A DNA stretch of 64,000 nucleotides, taken from positions 196,981-260,980 of the forward strand of contig DATKXK010000005.1 in assembly GCA_035529075.1 (NCBI GenBank), given 5' to 3'. The notes under the pieces were generated by a model. It searched no databases. It had not been told where the DNA came from and saw nothing but the letters and a program-made list of their open reading frames with translations. The DNA is from Acidobacteriota bacterium (lineage in GTDB: Bacteria > Zixibacteria > MSB-5A5 > GN15 > FEB-12). Positions 9,643 through 64,000 of this stretch are shown here, in pieces; the stretch's first letter is position 1; each line of letters begins with the position of its first letter. The position numbers were made by a program, and so were the translations under genes.

Positions 9643-10170
9643 TTACCGGGCGTCCTCAGAATGCGATTCCCCCTGCACGACCTGCAGAAAAAGCCTGTAG
9701 CCCGTGTCGTCGAACAGGCAAAACTGAACGCGTTGCAAGTTGACCACCTGCGACTCAAACCCTCGTACTGCCTTTACCATGATGTTGGCGCAGGCCTTCA
9801 TGGGAAAACCGCCGACACCGGTGCCAAAGGCCGGCAGGGCCAGTGACTTGAGTCCGAGTTTTTCGGCCAGGCTCAGTGCGGCGATTGTCGCCCGGCGGAT
9901 CAGCCGGTCGCTGGTGCGAAGATCCTGGCCCATGACGGCCGCGTGGATGACGTACTTAAAGCGCAGTCTGCCGGCGCCCGTATAGACGGCCTCGCCCGGC
10001 ATTACCGGCCCCTTGTGCATGGCTTCCTCTTCAATCACCTGCCCGCCGTGGCGCTTGATGGCGCCGGCCACGCCTGAACCCATCCAGAATTCGTTGTTAG
10101 CGGCATTGACTATTGCCTCCGTATCCGCCGCCGTGATGTCGCCTTTTACGACTTCAAGCTTGATCGGCAC
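9643..10170 (-). CDS. Macro domain protein (ADP-ribose / O-acetyl-ADP-ribose binding or hydrolase)
   Basis: The GDIT...EAIVNAANN...GSGVAGAI and PAFGTGVGG motifs are present. Confidence 0.88.
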   Translation of the reverse strand: MPIKLEVVKGDITAADTEAIVNAANNEFWMGSGVAGAIKRHGGQVIEEEAMHKGPVMPGEAVYTGAGRLRFKYVIHAAVMGQDLRTSDRLIRRATIAALSLAEKLGLKSLALPAFGTGVGGFPMKACANIMVKAVRGFESQVVNLQRVQFCLFDDTGYRLFLQVVQGESHSEDAR

Positions 10171-10717
10171 TTCGCAGAACCCTCCTGTAGAACGTTCGAA
10201 AGGCGCGGGCCAGGATCAGCCCGATGGCAGTTCCCAGAACGGCGCCCGCCAGCACGTCGCCGGGATAGTGGACGCCGACAAACACCCGGCTGATCGCCAC
10301 CAGGGCCGCGAAGGAGAACAGGTAGGTGCGCGCCCGGGGGTAATGATATCCAAAGAGCGTCGCCTGGGCGAACACGTTGGCGGCGTGGGCCGACGGCATG
10401 GCCTTGCCTCCCCCGCAGCCGACTAGCAAGTGGACGACCGTCATCGTATGACAGGGACGCAGCCGCCCGATGGCGGGTTTCAGAAGACCGGCCGACACCT
10501 GGTCTGACAGCAGAAGTGTCAGCCCTGACGCCACCACTAGCCACCTGAGTTTGCGGTCTCCCTTGATCAGCATGGCGAGCACGACCGTGCCGTAAAGAAC
10601 CTTCAGGAGCGTATCAGACGTAACAATCGGCATGAGAAAGTCAGTGACCGGGTTAGCCAGAGTGAGGTTGACAAAGAGAAAGACGACCCGGTCAATTTCG
10701 GCCAGGAACTCAAGCAT
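10154..10717 (-). CDS. PAP2 superfamily membrane phosphatase
   Basis: The PAP2 motifs KPAIGRLRP, PSAHA and SRVFVGVHYPGDV are present, along with several hydrophobic segments. Confidence 0.85.
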   Translation of the reverse strand: MLEFLAEIDRVVFLFVNLTLANPVTDFLMPIVTSDTLLKVLYGTVVLAMLIKGDRKLRWLVVASGLTLLLSDQVSAGLLKPAIGRLRPCHTMTVVHLLVGCGGGKAMPSAHAANVFAQATLFGYHYPRARTYLFSFAALVAISRVFVGVHYPGDVLAGAVLGTAIGLILARAFRTFYRRVLRSADQA

Positions 10718-11636
10718 AGGTGGGCGGACCTTTCTTCAGGAATCGGGCAACCTGTGCCGCCGTGGGAAGGCCGGCCCGCGCACCCATGCGGGTGCACTTC
10801 TGCGCCGCCGTGGCGGATCCGAACTTCAGGCGCTCGGACATCGTGAAACCCTGAAGCAATCCGTAAATGTAACCGGCGTGGAAGGCGTCTCCGGCTCCCG
10901 TCGTATCGACGTTCTTCACCCTGAAGGCCGGTCGACGGACATACGCGCCGTTCTCAAAGCCGGTCGATCCCTTGATTCCCTCAGTGACGACAATGCTCCC
11001 CGGGCAGTGGCGCCGCAGCCTTTGGATTGCCTGCCGGGCCGAACGGGCGCCGGTGAACGGGAAGGCATAGCTGTCGGCGACCACGAGGTGATCGACCAAA
11101 GGGAAGATCGGTGAGACGTCGTTTCGGACTGAGCCGATGTCGAAGGTGATGGTTGCGCCCACGCGTATTCCCCATCGGGCCAGCTTGATGCAGGCTTTCA
11201 GATCGCGACCGTCCAGGTGGACTATCCGCGGGATGGGATAGCGCAGCGGCGTAATGTCGCGAGGCGTCAAATGGATTATTCGATTGAGCACCATCGTGCG
11301 GCGGCCGCCGGGGGTCTCGACGACGCCGACGGCGGTATCGGACGACCCTCTCTTGAACACCACGAAGCGGTGATCGACGCCCTCTTTCCCAAGGTCCTCA
11401 AGGCCCAGCCTGCCCACCAGGTCATCGGCCACGGCCGTAATCAGCGCGGCGCTGTGGCCCATGCGTTTCAGGGCGATCATCACGTTGGGTACCGGCCCGC
11501 CCCCCTGGATACACAGCCCCCGGCCGTCAATCTTGCTGCCCGCTCGCGGATAGGTATCGACGCTGAACAGCAGGTCCAGGGGCATGATGCCGATGCCCAG
11601 GCAGTCTATGGTTTCAGTCCGGCGTGGTTTCCTCAA
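10710..11636 (-). CDS. PfkB family carbohydrate/nucleoside kinase
   Basis: A GG dipeptide region lies near the N-terminus and the C-terminal DTTGAGDAF anion-hole motif is present. Confidence 0.85.
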   Translation of the reverse strand: MRKPRRTETIDCLGIGIMPLDLLFSVDTYPRAGSKIDGRGLCIQGGGPVPNVMIALKRMGHSAALITAVADDLVGRLGLEDLGKEGVDHRFVVFKRGSSDTAVGVVETPGGRRTMVLNRIIHLTPRDITPLRYPIPRIVHLDGRDLKACIKLARWGIRVGATITFDIGSVRNDVSPIFPLVDHLVVADSYAFPFTGARSARQAIQRLRRHCPGSIVVTEGIKGSTGFENGAYVRRPAFRVKNVDTTGAGDAFHAGYIYGLLQGFTMSERLKFGSATAAQKCTRMGARAGLPTAAQVARFLKKGPPTYA

Positions 11637-12231
11637 TCCGTCCTTTTCCCGCAGTCAGTTCGTTGAACGAGGCCACCAGTTCATCCACCCGGCTGCGGCG
11701 GATTTCAAGGCGGACGCTCACGTGGTCAGAAAAATCGGTATCCTCTATCCGTGCCTCGAGACGATGCAGCAGTTTCTGCAAACGGTCGTACAGAGACAAG
11801 TCGAGATCAGCGCGGTAGTGCCGGCAGACGTACCGTTCACGAACGCCCGAGAGGTCCATCACGGCCCTGGCCGTCTCCGTGTAGGCTCTGGCCAGCCCGC
11901 CGGTACCGAGCTTGGTGCCGCCGAAGTACCTGGTAACGACAACGAGCACATTGGTAACGCCGCTGCCCGTAATCACGTTGTATATCGGTTTGCCGGCGGT
12001 ACCGTTCGGCTCGCCGTCGTCGGAATATCGGAACGCCTGTTCACCCGGTGCGCCCGTCAGCCAGGCGTAACAGTGATGAGTGGCGGAAAATTCGCGCCTG
12101 CGGATTTCCTCCAGCCTGGCTGCCGCCTTCTCGGAAGAGGACACGAGGCAGGATTCGCCTATGAACCTCGAGCCCTTCACTTTGATCTCGGTTTTTGTCT
12201 CCCGGGCTATTATCAGAAAACGGTCGTCCAT
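11614..12231 (-). CDS. yigZ: YigZ / IMPACT (UPF0029) family protein
   Basis: Contains KGSRFIG, the HHCYAW motif and VVVTRYFGGTKLG. Confidence 0.8.
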   Translation of the reverse strand: MDDRFLIIARETKTEIKVKGSRFIGESCLVSSSEKAAARLEEIRRREFSATHHCYAWLTGAPGEQAFRYSDDGEPNGTAGKPIYNVITGSGVTNVLVVVTRYFGGTKLGTGGLARAYTETARAVMDLSGVRERYVCRHYRADLDLSLYDRLQKLLHRLEARIEDTDFSDHVSVRLEIRRSRVDELVASFNELTAGKGRIEETTPD

Positions 12232-12239
12232 GGCGGTCT

Positions 12240-13145
12240 TTATACCAGGGCCTTGATGATTTCGTCAAGGCGATCGTATCCTTCAATCGGGATGGCGCCG
12301 CTTTGAACGGCGTGCGAGAGGCTCTCTTCGTCGGCCAGGGGACCCAGTTCAGGGTCGACCATGAAGAAGGTCAACTTGCCTATCTGGTTGCAGCAGGTTA
12401 CAATATCGAGCGCCCGGGCCGAATCGGCGTACATCTCCGGGACCACGACCGCCTGGGCCAGACCGATCAGAACCCGGTTGGCCTGGGCCATGGCCTGCAA
12501 GTTCGGCTTTTCGTCGGGAAGGTGCTCGCTGATCACACCGCCCGCCTGAGCGATGTCGATAGCCAGCCGCATGGCCTCGTCGCCGCCGAGTTGATCGAAG
12601 CCGACGTCGAGGACCGCGAAGGATTCCCCGGTCGCCGATTTGCATCCAAGATGGGCGGCAAAGTCGATGCCGCCGGACAGCGATGAAATCATCTGGACAC
12701 CTTCCTCGGCAAACCGTTTGGCCAGTCGCGTCGCCATCTGGATACCCTCGTTGGTTGCCACCTCGGCGCCGATGACGGCCACGGACCGCTTATCCGGTGA
12801 AGTCAGACGGCCGCGAACAAACAGCAGGGGCGGGGGGTCGTTCAACTCGAACAGCAACGGCGGGTAGCCATCGGTAAACCGGCTCGCGACCGATATGTCC
12901 CGGGACGCGAGGTTGTCCAAGAGCGATTGAGCCTCATCAAGGCGGTTCAACGCCGAGGAGATTCTCTTGGCCGCTTCTGCGGTCATGCCGTCGAGTTCAA
13001 GGATCGAGGCCGAAGCGGCCTTGAGGATGCGCTCGGGGGGACCGAGATGCCGGAAGAGCGCCTCGAACATGCGCGGTGTCACGCCCGCCAGTTTGCACAG
13101 AGCGAGCAACTGCGCGGCTATTGGATACTGCGACGTATCAACCAT
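12240..13145 (-). CDS. Divergent DprA/Smf-like (SLOG fold) protein
   Basis: It is collinear with the canonical DprA at 39157-40263: YPPLL...PPPLLFVRG, VIGAEVATNEG vs IVGTRHATEKG, GGIDFAAHLG vs EGIDAAAHRG, and ANRVLIGLA vs RNRIISGIS. It lacks the GARSG block. Confidence 0.6.
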   Translation of the reverse strand: MVDTSQYPIAAQLLALCKLAGVTPRMFEALFRHLGPPERILKAASASILELDGMTAEAAKRISSALNRLDEAQSLLDNLASRDISVASRFTDGYPPLLFELNDPPPLLFVRGRLTSPDKRSVAVIGAEVATNEGIQMATRLAKRFAEEGVQMISSLSGGIDFAAHLGCKSATGESFAVLDVGFDQLGGDEAMRLAIDIAQAGGVISEHLPDEKPNLQAMAQANRVLIGLAQAVVVPEMYADSARALDIVTCCNQIGKLTFFMVDPELGPLADEESLSHAVQSGAIPIEGYDRLDEIIKALV

Positions 13146-13248
13146 GCCCTAATGTAACCGTTTGCAGGATCAAGTCAACCGGCCACGTTACGGCAGAACC
13201 GAAGGCACGGGGCATGCCCCGCCCCGGGTCGCGCTGCCGAACCGGGAC

Positions 13249-13277
13249 TTGAACTATGGTACTCATTTAGGTATACT
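13249..13277 (+). promoter_or_regulatory. Sigma70-type promoter, apparently driving a leaderless mRNA
   Basis: TTGAAC (13249-13254), a 17-nt spacer, then TATACT (13272-13277). The ATG at 13284 is only 6 nt past the -10 element and has no Shine-Dalgarno sequence. Confidence 0.4.
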
Positions 13278-13283
13278 CAGACT

Positions 13284-14147
13284 ATGTTTCGTGCGAGTCT
13301 CTTTGCCGGCATTTTAGCGGGGCTGGTGCTGGCGGTCGTGTTGGGCGGGTGCAGCGGCCCTGACAGCGTCGAGGAATTGCAAGCAGCAGGTCAGAAAGCG
13401 TTCCTTCAGCAGGATTACGCCACCGCTCGCGATTACTTTCTCAGGGGTGTGGCCAAGGAACCCTCCAACAAGGATCTGCTGTACTACGCCGGTATGAGCT
13501 ACAAGCGGGACTTCCTCTACGACTCGGCCCTGTTTTATCTCAAACGGCTCGACATTCTGTACCCGAACGACCGTGAGACCAACCGGCAGCTATATGAAAT
13601 CGCCCTGGCCCTGGAGGACTGGGACTACGCCCGCACGGCGCTCACCGGCCTGGTGCGTACCGGAGACCGGATCGAGGACCATTACGCTGACTACGCGGAA
13701 CTGTGGGGCAAAGACAATCATCCGGGCAACGCATACTACTACACGAAACTGGCGATCGAAGTGGAGCCTGACAATCCGACCTACTATATGCAGGCCGCCG
13801 TGCTGGCTACGACCGTTGAACCCGGGCCCGCGGCCATGGCCTGGGTCGACACCGCAATTGCCAGGTTCGGCGAAAGCGATCCCTTTCTTGGCACCAAGGC
13901 TCTGATCCTGGCAAAACAGGAGAGCTACCGGGAGGCCGAAAGAATCTACCGCGATCTGGCCACCAGGGATACGACCAACGTCCTGCTCCAGGTCAACCTG
14001 GCTCACACCCTTGCCGCTCAGGACGACGTGACGAAGAAAACAGAGGCACTGGAGATTTATCGTTCGACGGCAGGCATAGTCTCACGGGATCTCAAGCTGG
14101 ATTCACTCATCGAGGAACTGGAACAGGAACTAAAAAGGGCTGAGTAG
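13284..14147 (+). CDS. TPR-repeat lipoprotein
   Basis: The signal peptide ends in the lipobox LGGC. The rest is repetitive helical A/Y/L-rich TPR-like sequence. Confidence 0.7.
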   Translation: MFRASLFAGILAGLVLAVVLGGCSGPDSVEELQAAGQKAFLQQDYATARDYFLRGVAKEPSNKDLLYYAGMSYKRDFLYDSALFYLKRLDILYPNDRETNRQLYEIALALEDWDYARTALTGLVRTGDRIEDHYADYAELWGKDNHPGNAYYYTKLAIEVEPDNPTYYMQAAVLATTVEPGPAAMAWVDTAIARFGESDPFLGTKALILAKQESYREAERIYRDLATRDTTNVLLQVNLAHTLAAQDDVTKKTEALEIYRSTAGIVSRDLKLDSLIEELEQELKRAE

Positions 14148-43467: not shown

Positions 43468-43682
43468 CCGCATGAGCACCCTGCCGGGTACTGCCTGCGA
43501 CATCCGACGCGAAGAGGCGCCGGCCGTGGCCGATCCCGGGTGCCCCGTTTGCCGGGAGGCGTTCCCGGGCACGTCGGGTGCGGATGATTCTCCGGACGAG
43601 TTCGTCGACTGATCCTCCGTTCGACGCCGGAACCGCCGATAAACCGCAATTGACATCACGATTGACTGACATATATTACCCT

Positions 43683-44564
43683 ATGCGACACCTGCTGCGA
43701 AAACTCCTTCCGACCGTACCTTCCGCGCTGATCTCATTCTTCCTGCTGGGGACGCAGTCAGCCGTGGCGCAGGCAAGCGGCGACACGATCGTGCGATGGG
43801 ATCGCACCAGTGCGGCGATTCTTGTAGCCGTCTTCTCGATAGTCGTGCTGCTGTACACGCGATGGGCCAAGGCGGGCAAGTCGCTTTTCCTGCGCAAGAT
43901 TCCCGGCCTGGAGGCGGTTGAGGAAGCGGTGGGTCGGGCCACCGAGATGGGCCGAGCGGTGCTGTACATTCCCGGCATTCAGGAACTCGACGATATCGAG
44001 ACGGTGGCCGGTATCTCCATTCTCGGAAGGGTTGCGAGAATCGCCGCACAGTACGACACGCCGCTGGTGGTGCCGGTTCGGTATCCTCTGGTGCTGGCTG
44101 CGGGCCAGGAAGTAGTTGAGCAAGCGTATGTCGAGGTAGGCAAGGCGGATGCGTACAACAAGGATATCGTACGCTACGTGGCCGGGGAGCAATTCGCATT
44201 CACGGCCAACGTGAACGGTCTCATGATGCGGGATCGACCGGCCGCCAACATTTACATGGGCGCCTTTTTCGCCGAATCGCTGCTGCTTGCCGAAACCGGG
44301 AATGCGGCGGGCTCCATTCAAATTGCCGGGACCGCCCGCCCGGAACAATTGCCCTTCTTTATTGCGGCCTGCGACTATACGCTTATGGGAGAGGAACTGT
44401 ATGCCGCCTCCGCATACCTGTCCCACGAGCCGCTGATGCTGGGCGGTCTTAAAGGGCAGGACCTGGTGAAAATCCTCATCATTATCTTTATCGTCGCCGG
44501 GGTCATCCTCGTGACTCTGGGCATCGGTGACACTTTCCGCAGCTGGTTTGATCTGGGGAATTGA
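43683..44564 (+). CDS. Hypothetical membrane protein P1 (signal/TM, soluble domain of about 230 aa, C-terminal TM)
   Basis: The start is trimmed to ATG 43683 (MRHLLRKLLP...). Hydrophobic segments lie near both ends. I recognise no family. Confidence 0.55.
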   Translation: MRHLLRKLLPTVPSALISFFLLGTQSAVAQASGDTIVRWDRTSAAILVAVFSIVVLLYTRWAKAGKSLFLRKIPGLEAVEEAVGRATEMGRAVLYIPGIQELDDIETVAGISILGRVARIAAQYDTPLVVPVRYPLVLAAGQEVVEQAYVEVGKADAYNKDIVRYVAGEQFAFTANVNGLMMRDRPAANIYMGAFFAESLLLAETGNAAGSIQIAGTARPEQLPFFIAACDYTLMGEELYAASAYLSHEPLMLGGLKGQDLVKILIIIFIVAGVILVTLGIGDTFRSWFDLGN

Positions 44565-45229
44565 GCGTGAGAACGGTCATTCCAGTGGTCGTGGCGTTCC
44601 TTTCGGGCATCGTCATGGTTGTATCCTTCTTTTTCAATCCGGACCGGACCATACTCGGCCGGATTGAGCCGATGGTGCTCAACTGGGTAACGATTGTCGG
44701 CGGGTTCACGCTGCTGCTGGGTGTCGTTTCGATCACGCGCGTCAACTGGAGCGGCGTGCGCCGGAGGCAGGACGGCTGGGTGTACAAGTGGTTCACTCTT
44801 CTGTCGCTGTACGTCATGGCCATACCGGCGCTGCTGCCGTCGTCATGGTCGCCGCTGTTCGGGGACGCCCGGGGTTCGATCTACGATTGGCTGTTTACGC
44901 ACGTCGATTCTCCCATGATGTGCACGATGTTTGCCATGCTGGCCTTTTACATCGCCTCGGCGGCTTACCGTGCTTTCCGCGCCCGAACACTCGAGGCGAC
45001 GCTGCTGCTTGTGGCCGCCGTGCTGGTGATGCTCTGGCGGATCCCGATGGGTGAGGCGTTCCTGCGCCTGTTCAGCGACAGCCTCCCGGGTTACATCAAT
45101 ACGTTCCTGATGGGCGGAGTCAACGCGGCGGTGCAACGAGGCATCGTCATCGGCGCTGCGCTCGGGGCTGCCTCGATGTCGCTGAGGATACTGCTCGGTA
45201 TCGAGCGAACGTACATGGGGAAGGGTTAA
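44561..45229 (+). CDS. Hypothetical polytopic membrane protein P2
   Basis: It overlaps the P1 stop; the start is TTG 44561 or GTG 44567. There are several hydrophobic helices. I recognise no family. Confidence 0.55.
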   Translation: MSVRTVIPVVVAFLSGIVMVVSFFFNPDRTILGRIEPMVLNWVTIVGGFTLLLGVVSITRVNWSGVRRRQDGWVYKWFTLLSLYVMAIPALLPSSWSPLFGDARGSIYDWLFTHVDSPMMCTMFAMLAFYIASAAYRAFRARTLEATLLLVAAVLVMLWRIPMGEAFLRLFSDSLPGYINTFLMGGVNAAVQRGIVIGAALGAASMSLRILLGIERTYMGKG

Positions 45230-45232
45230 CCC

Positions 45233-46069
45233 GTGGGTTTCTGGGAGAAATTCGGTTCTCTGGACCGCCGCCTGATCTATCTCATGGTGGCGCTGGCGGT
45301 CATTTTCCCGCTGATCGTCCCCGCCACCTTCAAGGTTTACGTTACTCCCGAGGCCCAACAGCTCTATGAGGCCGTTGAGGCGTTGCCTGATTCCTCGAAT
45401 GTCATGCTCACCTTCGACTACTACCCGTCGACTCTCGCGGAGACGGAACCGATGTCCATCGCTGCGCTGCATCATTTGTTCCGCAAGAACTGCAGGATCG
45501 TCACGCTGACGACGGTTCCTCTGGGCGGCCCCTCGATTGCCGAGCGCGTGACGCGATCCGTCGCTGAAGAACTCGGTAAAGTCTACGGCGTGGACTACGT
45601 CAACCTGGGTTTCAAGTACGGGTACGTGGCGGTGCTCAAAGGGATGGGCACGTCAATTGAGACCATTTACCCGACCGACAACTCCAGCACACCGCTGGCG
45701 GAGCTGCCGATGATGCAGTCAATCAGGAATTACGGCGATATCCGCTTCATCTTTGTCGTCTCGGACAACAACATAGTCGACTACTGGATTTCGATCGTCA
45801 ACGCCGAGTATGCCGTTCCGGTCGGCTGCGGGGTGACGGCCGTATCGGCGCCGAAGTATTACTCGTTCACGGCCTCGGGACAGGTGACCGGCCTGCTCGG
45901 CGGGATGAAAGGCGCTGCCGAGTACGAACAACTGGTGCAAAAAGAGGGGTTGGCCGTGGCCGGTATGGCCATGCAGTCGCTGGTTCACCTGCTCATCATT
46001 GCTCTCGTCGTCGTGGGCAACATAGCCTATTTTGCCACCGGGCGCCAAAAGAAGGGGGCGGCCCGATGA
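45233..46069 (+). CDS. Hypothetical membrane protein P3 (N-terminal TM, soluble domain of about 215 aa, C-terminal TM)
   Basis: GTG 45233 lies 3 nt after the P2 stop, with GGGGAAGGG upstream. I recognise no family. Confidence 0.55.
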   Translation: MGFWEKFGSLDRRLIYLMVALAVIFPLIVPATFKVYVTPEAQQLYEAVEALPDSSNVMLTFDYYPSTLAETEPMSIAALHHLFRKNCRIVTLTTVPLGGPSIAERVTRSVAEELGKVYGVDYVNLGFKYGYVAVLKGMGTSIETIYPTDNSSTPLAELPMMQSIRNYGDIRFIFVVSDNNIVDYWISIVNAEYAVPVGCGVTAVSAPKYYSFTASGQVTGLLGGMKGAAEYEQLVQKEGLAVAGMAMQSLVHLLIIALVVVGNIAYFATGRQKKGAAR

Positions 46070-46701
46070 GTCCGGTGGAAATCCTGCAGGTCTGGGTTGC
46101 CGCCTTTTTTACGCTGGCCTTATTTTCGTTTCTTTACCGGGATAACCCGTTTTTCAAGCTGGCCGAGCATATTTTTGCCGGTCTGTCGGCCGGGTACTAT
46201 ATCGGCGTGGTCTGGAAATCGGTCATTCTTCAGCAGTTGTGGTACCCCATGCAGGCCGGCCACTGGGAGCTGGTTTTCCCGGCTATGCTTGGTCTTCTCA
46301 TGTTTGCCCGGCTGTCGTCCAAGTACTCCTGGATATCACGGGTTTCGCTTGCCTTCGTCATCGGGTGCACGGCCGGCGTGTTTCTGATCTCGCAACTGAA
46401 CGGGATGGTTCTGCCGCAAATGCAGGCGACCATGCTGTCGCTGGGTTTCGCCGACGGAATCGTGGAGATGCTGCTGGCGGTGATTGTAGTGGTGGGAGTC
46501 ATTTCCACCCTGATCTACTTCTATTTTTCCAAGGAGCATACGGGCGTGATGGGGGTAACGGCCAAGATCGGTATCTGGTTCATCATGGTCGCCTTCGGCG
46601 CTCATTTCGGATACACGGTCATGGCCCGCGTCTCGCTCTTGATCGGGCAGGTGTATTTCCTGTACCACCAGTGGTTGGGGTCGTTTTCGGATATCTTCTG
46701 A
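46066..46701 (+). CDS. Hypothetical polytopic membrane protein P4
   Basis: ATGA overlap with P3. There are several hydrophobic helices. I recognise no family. Confidence 0.55.
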   Translation: MSPVEILQVWVAAFFTLALFSFLYRDNPFFKLAEHIFAGLSAGYYIGVVWKSVILQQLWYPMQAGHWELVFPAMLGLLMFARLSSKYSWISRVSLAFVIGCTAGVFLISQLNGMVLPQMQATMLSLGFADGIVEMLLAVIVVVGVISTLIYFYFSKEHTGVMGVTAKIGIWFIMVAFGAHFGYTVMARVSLLIGQVYFLYHQWLGSFSDIF

Positions 46702-46773
46702 GCAGGCCGGTGACACGGCGGCGGTTTCTTTGTATAATCCTGTGAGGTGGCTCTGTCAAATGCAGGAGGATAA

Positions 46774-47838
46774 GTGAAAAGCATGTCCAAATACTTCGGG
46801 CCGCTTGTGGCTGTTGTGCTGCTGACCGGCTGCGGCTACAGTCCGGACAAACCCGTGTATGACACGGTCGAAAATCCCGACGGTTTTCCGGTCATGGCGG
46901 TTCAGCTCCTGGATGATATTGAGAACGACCAACTTACGGGCCTGGACGAAATAAGCGAGGCGTTCGGCCAACTGTACACGGAGCATTCTGAACTGCTGGA
47001 CAATGCGGCCTGGCGCGCTATTATTGACCGCCTCGGCCTGCGGCTGCACTACAAGGCCAGGCAGTTACTCAGGCAGGGCCTGCCCGGGTTCACGGGGGCC
47101 TCAGGGTATTTCATGCTGGCGGCCTTTGCCCGGCCGAAGGATCCGGAGGTCACGCGCGACGGCCGTCTTTTCACGTGCTGGCGAAAGGCCGTCACGGATA
47201 CAACTGCCGGTGCGCTTATTGACTCCCTGGCGCAGGACTCCTCGCCGGCTGTCAGACTTAACCTGGCCAGGTTCTTCATGCTCAATGACTCGTTGCATCG
47301 ACAGTTCGGACGGGAATACCTGATCGGGAACCTGTTTGCGTCACCTTCCGGCGAGAGCGCCATCTCCGGGTCGGCCGGGTTGACGGCTCTTGACAGAGCC
47401 TTTGCCGCCCACCTGGGCCTTTATGACTTTCCCCGGGAAGAGGCCATGGTGTCGTTCGGCGAGCAGTCAGTTGACCTGCTTTGCGCCGGATTCGTACCCC
47501 TGGGCGAAAACGTCTATCGCGCCGAGTTGTATTTCTATCCTCGTGAACGGATTGAATCCGACTATTCCGTAGCCCTTCGGATCACCACCGCCGGCGTGAG
47601 CGCGGAATCCCTGTTTGATCCCCTCCGCTTTGTGCCCTTCGATTTTCCACCGGAGGTGCCAACGTCGCGCTGGGAAAAGGGAAAGGTGGCTGCCGCATAC
47701 CGGATCATTCGTTTTCTCGACCCGATTTCCGACGTCGCGGTCGGTCTGGTCGACGTCAGCGCCGAGCCCCGGCGCTACCTGAAGCCCGCGGGTGCCGACG
47801 GCAATTGTTTCCGTTTTTCGAGCGGTACGGGGCAGTAG
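46774..47838 (+). CDS. Hypothetical lipoprotein
   Basis: AGGAGGA at 46764-46770 precedes the start. The signal carries the lipobox LLTGC. I recognise no family. Confidence 0.55.
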   Translation: MKSMSKYFGPLVAVVLLTGCGYSPDKPVYDTVENPDGFPVMAVQLLDDIENDQLTGLDEISEAFGQLYTEHSELLDNAAWRAIIDRLGLRLHYKARQLLRQGLPGFTGASGYFMLAAFARPKDPEVTRDGRLFTCWRKAVTDTTAGALIDSLAQDSSPAVRLNLARFFMLNDSLHRQFGREYLIGNLFASPSGESAISGSAGLTALDRAFAAHLGLYDFPREEAMVSFGEQSVDLLCAGFVPLGENVYRAELYFYPRERIESDYSVALRITTAGVSAESLFDPLRFVPFDFPPEVPTSRWEKGKVAAAYRIIRFLDPISDVAVGLVDVSAEPRRYLKPAGADGNCFRFSSGTGQ

Positions 47839-57421: not shown

Positions 57422-58194
57422 ATCAGATGGCGGTGATCGGCTACCGCGAAGTTCTGATCGCAGCGGTGCTCGTTTTGCTCTCGATTGCCATCAGCCGGTG
57501 GTGGCGCATTCCGGTGCAGAAGGACATGGCGCTCGGATCGGTCCGCGCCTTTGTGCAGTTGGTGCTCGTTGGCTATGCCTTGGAGTACGTCTTCGCGCTG
57601 GAGTCCATCTGGCTCATTCTGCTGGCTATCATGGTGATGATCATCGTGGGCGCGCACGCCGCCGCCGGCAGGGTTTCCGGCCTGAGACGGGCTATCACGA
57701 TCACGTCGACGGCCATGATAGCCGGATCACTGTTGACTCTGGGGTTTATGCTGCTGCTGGACATTATCACCCTGGAAGCGCGATACGTTATTCCTCTGGC
57801 GGGAATGATCATCGGCAACTCCATGAACGCGTCCGCCCTTACGATCGGTCGCATCAGCGCGGACATCCGCAGTCACCGCCTGGCCATCGAAACGGCCCTT
57901 TCACTCGGGAAGAGCTGGCGCCAGGCCACGCGACCGTACCAGAAGGAGGCCGCTGTTGCGGGCATGCTTTCGATGCTCAACTTTCTGAAAACGGTAGGCA
58001 TTGTTGCCCTTCCGGGTGCGATGACGGGGATGATTCTGGCCGGCGTGGACCCCCTTGACGCCGTGCTGCTTCAGATCGTCGTCGGCTACATGCTGCTCAG
58101 CGCCGTCACGATCACCTCGGTGGTAGCCCTCGAGCTTACGGTCCGGCGGTTCTTCTCGCCGTTTCATCAACTTATCCTGAACGATTCGAAGTAG
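57418..58194 (+). CDS. ABC transporter permease, FetB/YbbM (UPF0014) family
   Basis: ATGA overlap with the ATPase gene. It is 258 aa and polytopic, and its size and pairing are typical of FetAB-type exporters. Confidence 0.75.
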   Translation: MNQMAVIGYREVLIAAVLVLLSIAISRWWRIPVQKDMALGSVRAFVQLVLVGYALEYVFALESIWLILLAIMVMIIVGAHAAAGRVSGLRRAITITSTAMIAGSLLTLGFMLLLDIITLEARYVIPLAGMIIGNSMNASALTIGRISADIRSHRLAIETALSLGKSWRQATRPYQKEAAVAGMLSMLNFLKTVGIVALPGAMTGMILAGVDPLDAVLLQIVVGYMLLSAVTITSVVALELTVRRFFSPFHQLILNDSK

Positions 58195-58471
58195 CCTGCG
58201 GCTGGGGCCAACAAGATCGCGACCCTCGCACGCCTCCACTTGACATGCACGTTGAATCATCCGTTCTTGATGTGAGTGAATGGCATGAGCGGGTAATCAG
58301 GAGGGAAAGATGCCATGAAACGCACAGTGCTGATCTGTATCGCGGTCGCGCTGTTGGTCGTTCTCTTCTCGGGTGACACCAGAGTATCCGATACCATGCT
58401 GGTATCATCGACTATGTAGAAATCCCCCGCCCAACCCGGGTCTACATACGGGCCCCTCCCCAAAGCCGCCG

Positions 58472-59215
58472 TTACTCGATTTCCCGGATTTGCGCCGTTC
58501 TTATGCGCTCTACAGCAGCTTTCATGAGCTCATCCACCGTGTCGGCGTACGTATCGAGAACATACTGACGCTTCCTCTCAATCAGATCCCGCTCCGAAAT
58601 ACCAAAAGGAAAGCGAACAACAAACTCATAGCCTTCAAGATAGTCCAACCAGTCCCGAAAGGCTGCAACTGCCTCCTCGTCCCTGGCTATCCGCTCGATG
58701 AACTGTTCGCCCTCAATAATCAACAGACCATAGTACTTGGCGGAGTTGTCCGGATTACGAGCCCATGTCGGGCGCTTCCCGACTATCTCAGCATATTCCT
58801 CGTCGGCTATTAGCCGGTATCCGGGAAGCTCAGGGCGATTCTCCTTCAGAAATGCGATTTCAGCACCGTAATCCTCATGTAAGTCCTTCCTCCGGTCAAG
58901 CATGTCATAAAAGAAGTTGACTTCCTTGTCTCGGAACAACCAAGTCATTCCGAGCTCAAACTGCCCCGGCTGGTTTCGGCTCTTTTCTACCCACGCGGCT
59001 CTTAATGACGTGTCTTCCTTCAATAATGTAAGGAGCTCGGACACAGAAAAAGCCAAGTTGACGTAGTCGAACCGGTCCAAATGGTCTTTCAACAATTGCA
59101 TGACCTCTCCACTGAGCACAGGAGGGTTGCTCCTTATGCTGTCTGTTTTCTGCTGCGAACAGGCAAGAGCAGCCGCAAAACAACAGAGCATGAACGCTAG
59201 TACTGTCACTCTCAT
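58472..59215 (-). CDS. Hypothetical lipoprotein (lower-G+C patch)
   Basis: The signal carries the lipobox ALAC. I recognise no family. Confidence 0.5.
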   Translation of the reverse strand: MRVTVLAFMLCCFAAALACSQQKTDSIRSNPPVLSGEVMQLLKDHLDRFDYVNLAFSVSELLTLLKEDTSLRAAWVEKSRNQPGQFELGMTWLFRDKEVNFFYDMLDRRKDLHEDYGAEIAFLKENRPELPGYRLIADEEYAEIVGKRPTWARNPDNSAKYYGLLIIEGEQFIERIARDEEAVAAFRDWLDYLEGYEFVVRFPFGISERDLIERKRQYVLDTYADTVDELMKAAVERIRTAQIREIE

Positions 59216-59783
59216 GAGCTATCTCCTCCTAATGCAAAGGCGGGTCTAGAATAGTAATACTAAAATTACGGTTCGTCTGATCTATGATTGCATTGAATGC
59301 ATCGGCGCTTCTTCCAACCCAATTCGTACCCCACTCAAAACCAGGCAGCCCGTAGGTCGGGTTCCAACCGGCCGCAGGCCGGGAGAAACCCGACACGGGC
59401 CCATGTATGAACTACTCTCAGATGCAACCCCCCGGTGAACCAAGAGTATACCGTATGGTCTATGTTGTGTCAAGGCGTGAGTCAGACAGTGACACCGCAG
59501 AAGCCCGTCTTCAGGATGGTCACGCTACTGCCCCAGTCTCTTCAACTGCTTCCCGGCAGACGCCTTGTCTTCCTTCGTCCCGGCCCTGCTTTTCCGTTGT
59601 GCTACAGGAGCTTACGCGCCCCCATGATCAATGTGCGACAGCGCCACATGTTACCTGCTGATTACCACTCGGCGCCGGGCCTTTATTGACAGACTCACCA
59701 TCGGTACTCCTTCCTTGCTCTGCTTGTAAGGTCTGTCCCTCCTGTTCGACTAGTCTGAAAAACCAATGTGGGAGACTACAATT

Positions 59784-60932
59784 ATGACACGCCGCTTGAT
59801 CTTCGTAATCGCCACCATTTGCCTGTGGAGTGCGCAGCTTGCCCACGGCCAGAATCTGCTTGATGGTCCTGATGGCGCCTCATACGATGAGGCCAACGAC
59901 AGATACCTGATTGCAAGCAGCCAGAATGCTGCTATCGTAGCCATTGATCAGGAGGGAGTGCAGAGCTATTTCCTCACCGGCCTCGGTAGTTACGTCTTTG
60001 GGGTCTTTATATCGGGTGACACCCTGTATGTTTCGGGCTCCGTTGGTGAGGTGAGAGCTTTCAACCTGAATTCGGCGGAACTCCTGTGGTTGAAATTCAT
60101 CGCCGGAGCCCACTACAATGGTGGCATGGCCATGGATAGCTCGGGGTATCTGTACATTGCCGATAACTTCGGGTTCGACAGCAAAATATACCGCATGAAT
60201 CCGAGCGATCAGACCTGGGTGACATTCGTCGGCTCCGGGCTGCCGGCGTTCACAACTGACTTGATCTACGATGAACCCAATAACCGTCTACTCGTCATCG
60301 GGTTCTATATGAACACACCAATTACCGCTGTCGATCTTGAAGATGCTACCTTGACGCCACTCGTCACGCCGCCGTCCATGAACCTGGGCGGGATTGCGAT
60401 GGACCACGATCGAAACGTCTATGTGTGCGAGTACTACAAAGGCACCATTTACATGTATGATCAGACTTTCACGAATCCACCGGCTGTAATCTCAGACGAC
60501 CACGGCAGTGCCAGCGGCATTGCTTATGATCATGTTCATGACATACTGATAGTACCGGATTTTATGAATCACCAGGTCGATTTCGTACATCTGAACGATA
60601 GCGACGGTGATATGATTGACGACCCCGATGACAACTGCGTCGATGATTACAATCCCGATCAGCTGGACCGTGACGGCGATGGCCTTGGCGACGCCTGTGA
60701 TTCCGTCTGCTGCGTCGGCGATGTCAGCGGAAACACAGACAACGACGCGTCGGAGATCGTAGATATCGGCGATCTGACCAAACTCATCAGCTATCTGTTC
60801 ATCACGTACGAGGAACCGGTTTGTTTGGGTGAAGCGAATGTCGACGGTGTTAGCAGTGTGGATATCGGCGATCTGACGCGCCTTATCGATTACCTGTTTA
60901 TCGCGCAAACACCGCCGGCCCCGTGCCTGTAG
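59784..60932 (+). CDS. Secreted beta-propeller (NHL/SMP-30-like) protein with TSP3-type Ca-binding repeats and a C-terminal dockerin-like repeat pair
   Basis: The start is trimmed to MTRRLIFVIATICLWSAQLAHG (signal). DDPDDNCVDDYNPDQLDRDGDGLGDACD is TSP3-like. The duplicated D.GDLT.LI.YLF segments are dockerin-like. Confidence 0.68.
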   Translation: MTRRLIFVIATICLWSAQLAHGQNLLDGPDGASYDEANDRYLIASSQNAAIVAIDQEGVQSYFLTGLGSYVFGVFISGDTLYVSGSVGEVRAFNLNSAELLWLKFIAGAHYNGGMAMDSSGYLYIADNFGFDSKIYRMNPSDQTWVTFVGSGLPAFTTDLIYDEPNNRLLVIGFYMNTPITAVDLEDATLTPLVTPPSMNLGGIAMDHDRNVYVCEYYKGTIYMYDQTFTNPPAVISDDHGSASGIAYDHVHDILIVPDFMNHQVDFVHLNDSDGDMIDDPDDNCVDDYNPDQLDRDGDGLGDACDSVCCVGDVSGNTDNDASEIVDIGDLTKLISYLFITYEEPVCLGEANVDGVSSVDIGDLTRLIDYLFIAQTPPAPCL

Positions 60933-61072
60933 ACGTTGCCCCTACTCTCCGGTGCGGGTCGCCAGGAGAATCCTCGCAACAGTCATTGATCTTCGAGTAT
61001 TCGTCACCGGTCGGTCGATCATACTATAGGCGACGCCGGCACGTTCTTATTGGTAGTATGTGATCGCGTCCA

Positions 61073-63340
61073 TCAGCTTCCTGCACGCAACCTCGACAAT
61101 CGGTCCCGGGCATCCGTGATTTCGGGGGGAGTGGCATCGGCATTGTCCCAACGGGACAGAAACGCCTCGTACTGCTCGATGGCTTTGTCCGGCCAGTTAG
61201 ACTCCTCGTACGTCTGACCGAGGAAATAGCGGGCTTTAACGAACCAGATGCCATAGTAGTATCGTTCGGCCGAGTAGTCGTCCCAGATTGCCTCAAAAGC
61301 ATCGCTCGCTTGACTCAGGTGCCCGTCTGCAAGATAGGCCCGGGCCAACCAGTACCGAACCGGAAAATGTAGGCTGCCCGAGTGAATTTCAGTGAAGGCA
61401 CTGATCGCTGATGCGATCCTGCCCTGGCTGAAGTCGATATAGCCACGCAGATACCAGTAGTTCCACGGCAGCGAACTGTCCGACATGTGCTCCGAGCGAA
61501 TCACTTCAAGGGCGGACTCGGCCTGCGCAAGTTGGCCCGCGTCGGTCAACGTCTGAACCCGATCGGTGCGACAGAGCAGCCTGGCCCCTGCGCTGATCGG
61601 TTCGCCAATCTGCTCACAGGCTTCGATAGTGGCAATTGCCTGCCTGAAGTCGCCGAGTTCGGCCAGTATGCGGGCTTTCATGAGCCGCTTTCTCACTGCC
61701 GCTTCAAATTGACGGTCGGTCATGTCAACCGCTGCCATGCTGTCCAGCACGGCCAGAGTGCTGGTGAACTGCCCCTGGGCCAGTGGAACGTAGGCCAGAA
61801 ATTCCCGGGCACGCGCGCGCAAGCCGTCTTCTCCACGCAGGGCGCATACGCGGTAACAGCTGTCGGCGCGCTCGTAGTCTTGCTTGAGAAGGTAGAGGTG
61901 GCCGCAGGTCTGGAGCGTAGTGAAGTGGTCCGGCTTTATTCTCAGAGCTTGCAGATACGATTTAAGAGCTGCATCGACGTCACCATGGTGCAGGAAGAGA
62001 TCACCGCGGGTGTCATACGGGTTGGGTTCATCGGGAGCAATCTCGATATAGCGGTTGACCGACAGGATGGCCCGTTCCCAATCGCCGGTGTTGTCGTAGG
62101 CGTAGGCCAGCGAGTTGTAGGCACTGCGATAGAACGGATTGACTCTGAGGGCCGCCTCGAAATACGGTATCGCTTCTCTGACCTTGCCGGTCATCCGCTG
62201 GATGAAGCCCAGCTGCCAGAAGGCATACGCTTCATCGGGGTACTCCTCGATCAAATCTTGAAGGAGACTGATGGCCAGGGCCGTATCCCCGCGAATGAGA
62301 TGATACCGGCTCTCGATGTAGTGTTTCTCTTTTTGGCTGGCGTGTTCACTGTACTTCCGGGCCTGCTCAATCAAATCCCGGTTTCGGGACTGCGAAAGGT
62401 AGTAGTAAGCCATCGCAAAAGTCGAATCATACTCCAGTGCCCGCTCGAACTCTGCGATTCCCTCGGCTGTGTAGAAACGAGTGACGAATTCGACGCCGCT
62501 AAGATAGTGTCGAAACGCATCGGCCGAGTGGGTGGTGATGTCAGAAATCGGAAGGTCCGTCGCCTCCCGGGCCAGGATCGGCAGCGGAAGGTCCAGTCGA
62601 ATCTGCGCGCTCAATCTGTCGATCACCGAGAAAATGTCTTCATCCGGCCCACCGGTCACGCGCTGGGTCGACAGAACGTTGCCCGTTGTCACCTCAGCCA
62701 GCCGCGAGGTTATGACGATTCCGGAGTCTACCCGGAGTAGTTCTCCGGTCAGGATCCAGTTGGCTCGCGCCTCGCGGGCCAACTCGATGGCAGCTTCCGG
62801 CCGCTGGATTTCGCTTCTGTCAATGCCTCGGGCACTCGCCAGATCGAGCATGTACGCGCTGGATATAACCCGCAGGTACTTCGATTCGCCCAAATCGGCG
62901 ATAAGCAGATTAGTGGCAATATCACTCAAGTGATCCTGATCCTGCGGCTCGGCCACGTTCGTGAACTGGAGGACCGCGAGCCGGTTATCAGATGCCACAG
63001 CTTCATTGTCGGTACGGATGTCGACCTGCCAGTCAACGAGTAACAGGAGGAGCAGAATCGCCGCCGCCACGGGCATAGAATACTTCCACCGGCTCCAGAT
63101 CCGTTTCCTCAACGGCGCCGCACCGGCCGCTTCCTTTTCCGCCAGCGAAATCGCGTAATCGTGAATCTCCGGGTCGTGACGAACCAGTTCGGCGACGTCG
63201 AGGTTCTTCTCCGCACGCAAACAGCAGAACTCACATTCGATCAGATGCTGCTCAAAGGCCCTGCTTTCTTCCTCAGATAGCATCCCCAGTTCATAAGCGT
63301 AGAGCATGTCACCATACTGCTTGTCGATACACCGACTCAT
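61073..63340 (-). CDS. Large membrane-spanning ZAS anti-sigma factor with periplasmic TolB-N-like and TPR domains
   Basis: N-terminal HLIECEFC fits H-x3-C-x2-C. A single TM segment is followed by about 620 aa containing many TPR-like repeats. ATGA overlap with the sigma gene. Confidence 0.72.
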   Translation of the reverse strand: MSRCIDKQYGDMLYAYELGMLSEEESRAFEQHLIECEFCCLRAEKNLDVAELVRHDPEIHDYAISLAEKEAAGAAPLRKRIWSRWKYSMPVAAAILLLLLLVDWQVDIRTDNEAVASDNRLAVLQFTNVAEPQDQDHLSDIATNLLIADLGESKYLRVISSAYMLDLASARGIDRSEIQRPEAAIELAREARANWILTGELLRVDSGIVITSRLAEVTTGNVLSTQRVTGGPDEDIFSVIDRLSAQIRLDLPLPILAREATDLPISDITTHSADAFRHYLSGVEFVTRFYTAEGIAEFERALEYDSTFAMAYYYLSQSRNRDLIEQARKYSEHASQKEKHYIESRYHLIRGDTALAISLLQDLIEEYPDEAYAFWQLGFIQRMTGKVREAIPYFEAALRVNPFYRSAYNSLAYAYDNTGDWERAILSVNRYIEIAPDEPNPYDTRGDLFLHHGDVDAALKSYLQALRIKPDHFTTLQTCGHLYLLKQDYERADSCYRVCALRGEDGLRARAREFLAYVPLAQGQFTSTLAVLDSMAAVDMTDRQFEAAVRKRLMKARILAELGDFRQAIATIEACEQIGEPISAGARLLCRTDRVQTLTDAGQLAQAESALEVIRSEHMSDSSLPWNYWYLRGYIDFSQGRIASAISAFTEIHSGSLHFPVRYWLARAYLADGHLSQASDAFEAIWDDYSAERYYYGIWFVKARYFLGQTYEESNWPDKAIEQYEAFLSRWDNADATPPEITDARDRLSRLRAGS

Positions 63341-63933
63341 GAGCCCTCATCCTCCTGACTGAGACACTTCTCCAGCATCGTTCGCGCTCGCGACAGAGTG
63401 ACCCAGCAGTTGTTACGGGTAATCCCCAGACGAAGGCATATCTCGTCCGTCGTATAACCCTGAAAGTGAAGGCTGAGGATGCGGGCGTGCCGCCGGTGCG
63501 TCTGATGAATCTTCCTAAAGCAGGTCTTGATCCTCACCTTGAGCATTGGATCCGGGTCGCTCACTACTGCTCCTGTCCGCCGTTGGCCTAGCTGCCTTAT
63601 CTTGTCAGTACGGATCTTCTTTAGCCTGAAATGATCCACGATCTTGTTATGCAGAATCCTGTATGCCCAGGCGGCAAAACTCGACTCGACCGTGAGTTCG
63701 TCAAATTTAGCCACCACGGCGAGAAGGGCATCCTGGGCAACATCCTCAGCGTCCTCATCCCCCCACATTCGATGTCGAATAATAACCCGAAAACATACAA
63801 GAAGGCGGGCATATAAGCTGGCCCTGGCGGCGGCATCACCACCATGGGCCAGAGAATACAATTCGTCGATGCCTGACATCGGTTCCATCGCCGGTCCCAT
63901 AATAGTACGACCGTTTCGCTTTATCAACAGCAT
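63337..63933 (-). CDS. ECF-type sigma-70 family factor
   Basis: Region 2 is DAEDVAQDALLAV...FAAWAYRILHN and region 4 is YTTDEICLRLGITRNNCWVTLSRAR. Several in-frame Met codons leave the start uncertain. Confidence 0.8.
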   Translation of the reverse strand: MLLIKRNGRTIMGPAMEPMSGIDELYSLAHGGDAAARASLYARLLVCFRVIIRHRMWGDEDAEDVAQDALLAVVAKFDELTVESSFAAWAYRILHNKIVDHFRLKKIRTDKIRQLGQRRTGAVVSDPDPMLKVRIKTCFRKIHQTHRRHARILSLHFQGYTTDEICLRLGITRNNCWVTLSRARTMLEKCLSQEDEGS

Positions 63934-64000
63934 TTCTCGATGGCTTTGATCAGGGGATTCCGATCAGCCCGGCCGGACCGGCACGCACTCGTTTTCGTAG

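Follow-up and report, generated by a model that had tools for sequence, protein, structure and literature searches.

A conserved four-gene membrane module with a DUF6754 subunit in Zixibacteria as a candidate envelope machine

In the window, by which we mean the full 64,000-nucleotide (nt) stretch from contig DATKXK010000005.1 and not the gene cluster alone, four adjacent membrane-protein genes, P1 to P4, occupy positions 43683–46701 of the + strand and are followed by a lipoprotein gene, P5. We estimate a probability of roughly 55% that P1–P4 encode subunits A, B, C and D of one inner-membrane complex, a member of a module family that is commonly linked to an ATPase. The module is probably driven by an ATPase of the GlmL type, and its function is probably directed at the envelope, in transport, assembly or remodelling. 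The five genes, with protein lengths in amino acids (aa), are as follows.

43683–44564, + strand: P1, subunit A, 293 aa, Pfam DUF6754, minimal form without ectodomain; ATG start, TGA stop
44561–45229, + strand: P2, subunit B, 222 aa; TTG start, 4-nt overlap with P1
45233–46069, + strand: P3, subunit C, 278 aa; GTG start, 3-nt gap after P2
46066–46701, + strand: P4, subunit D, 211 aa; ATGA overlap with P3
46774–47838, + strand: P5, lipoprotein, 354 aa; 72-nt gap after P4

Co-conservation of P1–P4

The first-pass annotation of this DNA had described the same series of junctions, from the 4-nt overlap to the lipoprotein gene 72 nt further on, and the coordinates matched it exactly. Judging from these junctions, P1–P4 are translationally coupled. 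Independent gene calls on three public contigs carrying an identical P1 returned the same five genes. A scan of species-representative genomes yielded 197 loci, of which the best 80, all from Zixibacteria-type metagenome-assembled genomes, were analysed. Homologues of P1–P4 were collinear and in the same order in 80 of the 80 loci, with gaps at contig ends only, and identities to the window copy were 68–84% for P1, 58–81% for P2, 58–81% for P3 and mostly 57–78% for P4. The annotation had made its proposal depend on the four genes being kept together in other genomes, and they were found together in all 80 loci, in paralogous arrays and in other phyla. It had also read the layout as that of a hetero-oligomeric envelope machine, and strict collinear co-conservation fits such a machine in the inner membrane. 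A public protein 100% identical to P1 is labelled 'Acidobacteriota bacterium'; its close relatives and the syntenic loci are all from Zixibacteria, and the label probably reflects an error in binning or taxonomy.

Relatives of P1 numbered more than 8,000 at 90% clustering, the top hits being 72–82% identical. An exhaustive DUF6754 profile search recovered 2,334 representative clusters (50% identity) at E≤1e-3 and 969 at E≤1e-30, and named sources of the family included Zixibacteria, Candidatus Brocadiia and Candidatus Fermentibacteria. Most clusters carried 100–1,000 extra residues N-terminal to the DUF6754 part. Among 76 long members, this extension contained a BamB/PQQ-type beta-propeller in 14 and Pfam-recognisable FN3 domains in 4, the remainder being unrecognised sequence. 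The window P1, with only a signal peptide before its first helix, is the minimal, ectodomain-less form of the family.

The module was present in one to four copies per genome in several little-studied bacterial phyla. A second locus in Zixibacteria chromosomes contained three tandem DUF6754 copies, each followed by proteins of about 216–270, 292–336 and 207–280 aa, and hidden Markov models built from the orthologues of the window P1, P2, P3 and P4 matched the genes of this triple array in A-B-C-D order. The complete Zixibacteria chromosome CP070777.1 held both a solo module and the ATPase-linked triple array; in the window, the solo copy only was found. The A-B-C-D order was also observed in a contig from Brocadiia, whose A has 1,277 aa, in a Fermentibacteria contig, where a solo minimal module follows rpsF-ssb-rplI, and in three further contigs or lineages. 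All four genes were therefore found collinear and co-conserved across genomes and phyla, metagenome loci included.

Several side features of these wider loci were recorded. In the Brocadiia contig, the module is followed by an OmpA-domain coiled-coil protein (L086, 9073–9837) and then by a lone 1,276-aa DUF6754 protein (9973–13803) without B, C and D. In two lineages (L088, 1–5872; L090, 1–7320 and 18111–21686), giant cadherin/Big-domain surface proteins flank the system, one of them with a type IX secretion system sorting-tail signal; these may be cargo or coincidence.

Predicted architecture of the subunits

P1 matched Pfam DUF6754 (PF20539) with 387.1 bits against a cutoff of 27 (E=4e-116), its residues 36–281 covering profile positions 5–250 of 257, so that it is a full-length member. 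The first-pass statement that none of the five genes belongs to a nameable family thus had to be given up for P1 and held for P2–P4, for which there was no match in Pfam, NCBIfam, PADLOC or, by sequence, the Protein Data Bank (PDB). The genes nevertheless remain uncharacterised, as that annotation had said, since membership of DUF6754 assigns P1 no function: the catalogue entry has no function, structure or literature, and it covers subunit A only, leaving B, C and D without a family model. Profiles of each of the families P1–P4 had no sequence match in the PDB either, and Pfam scans of 22 diverse C proteins showed no consistent weak match. A homologue search with the P3 profile returned orthologues only, at 59–78% identity.

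The features assigned within P1 and P3 are listed below; transmembrane is abbreviated TM.

43683–43772, + strand: P1 signal peptide, residues 1–30, cleavage motif at the AVA-QA junction (AVA/QA); most family members have a large ectodomain at the same position
43797–43871, + strand: P1 first TM helix, residues 39–63, outside to inside, from hydropathy, charge counts and AlphaFold
43872–44429, + strand: P1 predicted cytoplasmic Rossmann-like alpha/beta domain, residues 64–249, six parallel strands, AlphaFold
44430–44516, + strand: P1 last TM helix, residues 250–278, AlphaFold
44433–44462, + strand: conserved motif LMLGGLKGQD, just before the last TM helix of P1
45890–45928, + strand: P3 motif GLLGGMKGAAEYE, ahead of the last TM helix of P3

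The N-terminal signal peptide ahead of the first TM helix of P1 had been overlooked in the first-pass annotation. AlphaFold prediction of P1 with 26 close orthologues gave a mean confidence (pLDDT) of 50.7, which was unusable, and 109 paralogues were added for the final model, which was based on 139 orthologues and paralogues and reached a pLDDT of 86.9 and a predicted TM-score (pTM) of 0.78. This model contained the signal-peptide helix, the TM helix 39–63, six parallel strands (93–97, 128–132, 163–165, 188–192, 212–217 and 232–235) alternating with helices, and the TM helix 250–278. The residues invariant in the family (GRATEMG, P97-G98, T107, Q170-F171, R183, E198, E204, G216-T217, Q222-x-P-F-F (QLPFF), C230-D231-Y232 and G236-E-E) were found in the model at the C-termini of the strands, an edge that commonly holds a ligand or an active site. 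The cytoplasmic domain of A may bind a ligand, the pair formed by the ATPase and the protein p376 described below, or both. Foldseek comparison of the P1 model with the PDB found no match at E≤1e-3 and no close fold; the best hits were generic Rossmann-like folds (eIF2B/methylthioribose-1-phosphate isomerase, SIS, Sir2 and GT-B), with a best E of 2.5e-3 and TM-scores of 0.2–0.33. Since ectodomains and signal peptides precede the first helix, and in line with the positive-inside rule, A is predicted to be N-out with its domain in the cytoplasm.

P2 was predicted to have six TM helices with both termini inside, and contained the conserved motifs AFYIASAAYRAFRAR and LGIER. P3 was predicted to have its N terminus inside, a TM helix at 14–36, a periplasmic alpha/beta domain at 37–245, a TM helix at 246–268 and a basic cytoplasmic tail. 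This topology was derived from positive-inside charge counts, with a conserved DRRW ahead of the first helix and the basic tail after the second, and two paralogue classes of C with two extra N-terminal helices kept the same orientation. P4 was predicted to have six or seven TM helices and contained the conserved motifs FSFLYKDNP, YFYFSKEH and FGAHFGYTVMxR. The N terminus of D is probably outside, as suggested by an N-terminal signal-anchor in some paralogues and by some orthologues whose predicted periplasmic loop 4–5 is extended by a hydrophilic insertion of 160 aa. In the subset of Zixibacteria concerned, the P4 orthologue is 371 aa long, helices 4 and 5 being separated by this insert of about 160 aa (L033, 12299–13414; also L031, L036, L044, L045 and L076). 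Given the predicted position of this loop, D too may gain an extracytoplasmic domain.

Hydropathy, family-averaged charge counts and the AlphaFold model of P1 bore out the alternating architecture described in the first-pass annotation, in which the polytopic P2 and P4 alternate with P1 and P3, proteins with one TM helix towards each end. The soluble domains of 215–230 aa that it gave for P1 and P3 were too long; they comprise about 186 aa in P1 (64–249) and about 209 aa in P3 (37–245). In addition, the positive-inside rule and the placement of homologue ectodomains ahead of the first helix predict opposite sides of the membrane for the two domains, cytoplasmic in P1 and periplasmic in P3.

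An alternative account of this architecture, which the first-pass annotation had hinted at, is that the operon arose by ancient tandem duplication of a two-gene unit encoding a bitopic and a polytopic protein, with P1 related to P3 and P2 to P4 in a pseudo-symmetric heteromer forming an inverted-topology pair. The alternation itself and the similar sizes (293 and 278 aa for P1 and P3, 222 and 211 aa for P2 and P4) would agree with it, as would the opposite predicted orientations (A N-out and B N-in; C N-in and D probably N-out) and the presence of an alpha/beta globular domain in both A, from the model, and C, from the sequence pattern. The motif pair LMLGGLKGQD in P1 and GLLGGMKGAAE in P3 from which the annotation had argued was confirmed, and its conservation in both families extends across phyla. 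On the other hand, BLASTP comparison of P1 with P3 and of P2 with P4 gave nothing significant (E≥0.08). Profile–profile comparison by hhalign was run with orthologue-only, diverse and domain-only profiles against reversed controls and with still wider alignments. With diverse profiles the probabilities were 0.7% for A against C and 0.6% for B against D, and the domain-only scores were no better than those of reversed profiles. The widest alignments of A and C produced the sole signal, a match of about 34–35 columns (34 in the one scored at 14% probability) that takes in LLGxxKG, a conserved Q and the final TM helix and is placed alike in both proteins, with a score of 30 against 17–19 for reversed controls; a shared packing partner could explain it too. 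Only the C-terminal motif survived of the proposed duplication, and these comparisons lend no support to a common origin of the two globular domains or of B and D. We consider the duplication improbable.

Partner genes and a proposed mechanism

Modules that bear ectodomains are adjoined by a gene for a GlmL-type actin-fold (ASKHA) ATPase of about 605–620 aa. This protein matched PF13941 with 422 bits (E=2e-126) and NCBIfam NF040745 with 231 bits against an equivalog cutoff of 475, and the ASKHA phosphate-1, phosphate-2 and adenosine motifs were intact in 48 sequences. No mutase gene was found near it in the related loci examined. A second partner, p376, is a cytoplasmic protein of 373–378 aa with 51–58% identity between phyla, no family model and a weak biotin/lipoyl-like barrel signal (E=0.01). 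Two small proteins often accompany the ATPase and p376. Metagenome contigs searched from p376 provided at least 526 loci, with the recurring order s147-s148-GlmL-p376-(A-B-C-D), the module being repeated one to three times. When well-flanked loci were defined by at least 6 kb upstream and at least 4 kb downstream (n=26), a module was adjacent in 15. The link of the ATPase and p376 to the module is frequent, not obligatory. Clustering of flanking open reading frames (ORFs) across the p376 loci revealed no other widely recurrent family, except the small ORF s148 of about 133 aa (22 loci).

Our proposal for how the complex might work is as follows. A would be exported by means of its signal peptide, cross the membrane, place its Rossmann-like domain, which is strongly conserved, in the cytoplasm and cross back. 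C would be its mirror image, anchored by two helices with its conserved alpha/beta domain in the periplasm. B and D, of about 210–220 aa and six to seven TM helices each, would form the membrane core. The GlmL-type ATPase and p376 would dock on the cytoplasmic domain of A, and changes driven by ATP or by a ligand would reach the periplasmic domain of C and the ectodomains of A by way of the B/D core, the outcome being transport, assembly or remodelling of an envelope component. A broader and much more tentative proposal, for which we see less than an even chance, is that ABCD, the GlmL-type ASKHA ATPase, p376 and the two small proteins constitute an unrecognised class of ATP-driven envelope machine in FCB/PVC-group bacteria. 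Modules with interchangeable ectodomains (beta-propeller, FN3 or none) would plug into one cytoplasmic motor, and each module may be an inverted-topology pair, A/B versus C/D.

Several points weigh against P1–P4 as subunits of an ATPase-linked complex. No physical interaction, activity or phenotype is known for A–D, and their topologies are predictions. The window locus has no gene for the ATPase or p376, and 11 of the 26 well-flanked p376 loci have no adjacent module. The Foldseek hits of the A model are generic folds that point to no particular chemistry, and B and D lack the kind of invariant, buried mid-helix charge that ion-driven stators have. Stators of the MotA/ExbB/TolQ–MotB/ExbD/TolR type were rejected as a candidate identity, there being no PF01618 or PF02472 match and no mid-helix Asp or Glu among the invariant residues of B and D.

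Comparison with known systems yielded partial resemblances. In MreB-MreC-MreD, PilM-PilN-PilO and GspL-GspM, a cytoplasmic ASKHA-fold protein is encoded beside small bitopic proteins with a periplasmic domain and polytopic proteins, and these systems form envelope-spanning scaffolds. The module would be analogous to them in having an actin-fold ATPase gene next to bitopic and polytopic inner-membrane proteins, but there is no sequence match, the ATPase belongs to the GlmL/PF13941 type, A and C each have two anchoring helices, and tandem modules carry differing ectodomains. The Rnf/Nqr core likewise has two six-TM subunits of about 200 aa, one bitopic subunit in the periplasm and one peripheral subunit that has a barrel-sandwich domain at its N terminus, comparable with the weak barrel signal of p376; however, no Pfam Rnf-Nqr match (E≤1), no invariant Cys in B, C and D, no flavin mononucleotide attachment motif (SGAT) and no redox domain was found, and the resemblance is one of layout only. 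The ATPase of the related loci resembles the GlmL/MutL accessory proteins of B12-dependent mutases (NF040745, TIGR01319) in its PF13941 match and intact ASKHA motifs, and differs from them in its low NF040745 score, a C-terminal extension of about 130 aa, the lack of an adjacent mutase and its absence from the window. In GldF/GldG-type ABC auxiliary pairs, a small polytopic protein is encoded beside a protein whose periplasmic alpha/beta domain is anchored by a helix at either terminus. The module shares this pairing of a polytopic protein with a periplasmic protein anchored at both ends, but P1–P4 have no ABC_transp_aux or ABC-2 match and no ABC ATPase is present. No relevant literature on DUF6754, PF20539 or PF13941 was found in open-access text, and PADLOC gave no anti-phage defence model match for P1–P5, the GlmL-like protein, p252 or p376. 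With A known as a DUF only, B, C, D and p376 lacking family models, and none of the compared systems sharing the defining features, the module appears from its sequences to lie outside the known kinds.

In two loci (L084, 10001–21092; L085, 10001–21240), three tandem FN3-type modules are divergent from the GlmL-like, p252 and p376 genes and stand beside a complete tolQ-tolR-tolA-tolB-pal-ybgF cluster. A general link to Tol-Pal was rejected, this adjacency being confined to a Zixibacteria group.

The module could instead be a solute transporter resembling a binding-protein-dependent importer, with B and D as a heterodimeric permease of 6+6 helices, C as a tethered periplasmic binding protein and A as a cytoplasmic regulatory or energising subunit. 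Two six-TM subunits of the appropriate size, a periplasmic alpha/beta domain and a cytoplasmic Rossmann-like domain with a conserved pocket would suit this role, as would the occurrence of a solo copy amid housekeeping and sugar-nucleotide genes in two phyla. However, P1–P4, as single sequences or as profiles, contained no Walker motifs and matched no ABC, TRAP, TTT or other transporter in Pfam, NCBIfam or the PDB, and an Rfam scan of the operon and its leader found no family and hence no riboswitch upstream. Furthermore, solute transporters seldom occur as tandem arrays of entire modules or carry ectodomains as large and variable as the beta-propellers and FN3 domains of A. We regard this function as unlikely, to about the same degree as the duplication.

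Flanking genes and wider meaning

P5 carries the lipobox LLTGC, which fits the pattern L-x-[GA]-C; its signal sequence MKSMSKYFGPLVAVVLLTGC, followed by G, matched the lipoprotein signal model weakly, and no family in Pfam or NCBIfam was found for the protein. P5 was detected in 29 of the 80 Zixibacteria loci, at 29–53% identity. Because of this limited occurrence and divergence, and of a promoter-like site of its own, P5 is a lineage-variable neighbour outside the conserved module and does not qualify as a fifth subunit. Two promoter-like sites were found.

43650–43677, + strand: TTGACA-16-TATATT, 11 of 12 consensus matches, ending 5 nt 5' of the P1 ATG
46710–46738, + strand: GTGACA-17-TATAAT in the P4–P5 gap, a consensus match only

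The first of these resembles a sigma-70 promoter, and no Shine-Dalgarno sequence precedes the P1 start (window 43650–43685). Since the promoter match ends so close to the ATG and a Shine-Dalgarno sequence is lacking, the operon mRNA may be leaderless or near-leaderless.

A nucleotidyltransferase gene lies directly after P4 in about half of the 80 loci, and a nucleotidyltransferase-metK-ahcY block lies 3' of the module in about 51, a synteny seen within Zixibacteria only. On the 5' side, the bifunctional phosphoglucose/phosphomannose isomerase gene (PGI/PMI), ptsI, ptsH and dprA were present in only 12–15 of the 80 loci (PGI/PMI in 15). Of the sugar-gene neighbourhood given in the first-pass annotation, PGI/PMI is linked in few loci and the downstream block is conserved within Zixibacteria only; neither is part of the unit. 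Because of these locus counts, P1–P4 are taken as the unit, and P5 and the sugar genes as neighbours at the level of lineages. In the window, ptsH (HPr), ptsI (Enzyme I) and PGI/PMI lie just upstream of P1 (40269–43467) and no gene for an Enzyme II (EII) permease was noticed nearby, an arrangement that suggests an incomplete, probably regulatory, phosphotransferase system. At the far end of the window (58001–64000), the GC content falls from about 0.60 to 0.535–0.56 and the sign of the GC skew is reversed; this part may belong to another segment of the genome or to an island.

These neighbours raise the alternative that one functional unit, an exopolysaccharide or envelope-glycan pathway, takes in P5 and the sugar-phosphate and nucleotide-sugar genes on either side along with the module. 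The recurrent nucleotidyltransferase would be in keeping with it, together with an NAD-dependent epimerase 3' of the module in Fermentibacteria, a polyprenyl synthase nearby in one further locus (L089), and the GT-B and sugar-phosphate-binding folds among the weak Foldseek hits of the P1 model. The sporadic distribution of P5 and PGI/PMI argues to the contrary, none of the P5 or sugar genes recurs beside modules in metagenome loci, and the Foldseek TM-scores are at most 0.33; we therefore think a shared glycan pathway quite unlikely. Least probable of all is a transmembrane signalling receptor, in which the variable ectodomain of A would sense a periplasmic ligand and the conserved cytoplasmic domain would be the output: receptors classically combine a variable ectodomain with an invariant cytoplasmic part, yet an ectodomain is missing from the most conserved members, namely the window copy and its orthologues in Zixibacteria and Fermentibacteria, the module contains no kinase, cyclase, HAMP or DNA-binding domain, and three obligate membrane partners and an ATPase would be unexpected for a simple receptor.

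P1–P4, here proposed as the four subunits of an ATPase-linked inner-membrane complex, rank with the best conserved membrane proteins of Zixibacteria, with 70–80% identity across the phylum and about 50% between phyla. They represent four protein families, three without any family model, that occur in thousands of metagenome sequences, and the modular, multi-copy layout together with the linkage to an actin-fold ATPase makes them a concrete candidate system. If the module is an envelope machine, it would be a new device for trans-membrane energy coupling or assembly, would provide a function for a large 'dark' part of the FCB/PVC pangenome, and would point to a non-mutase role for GlmL-type ATPases.

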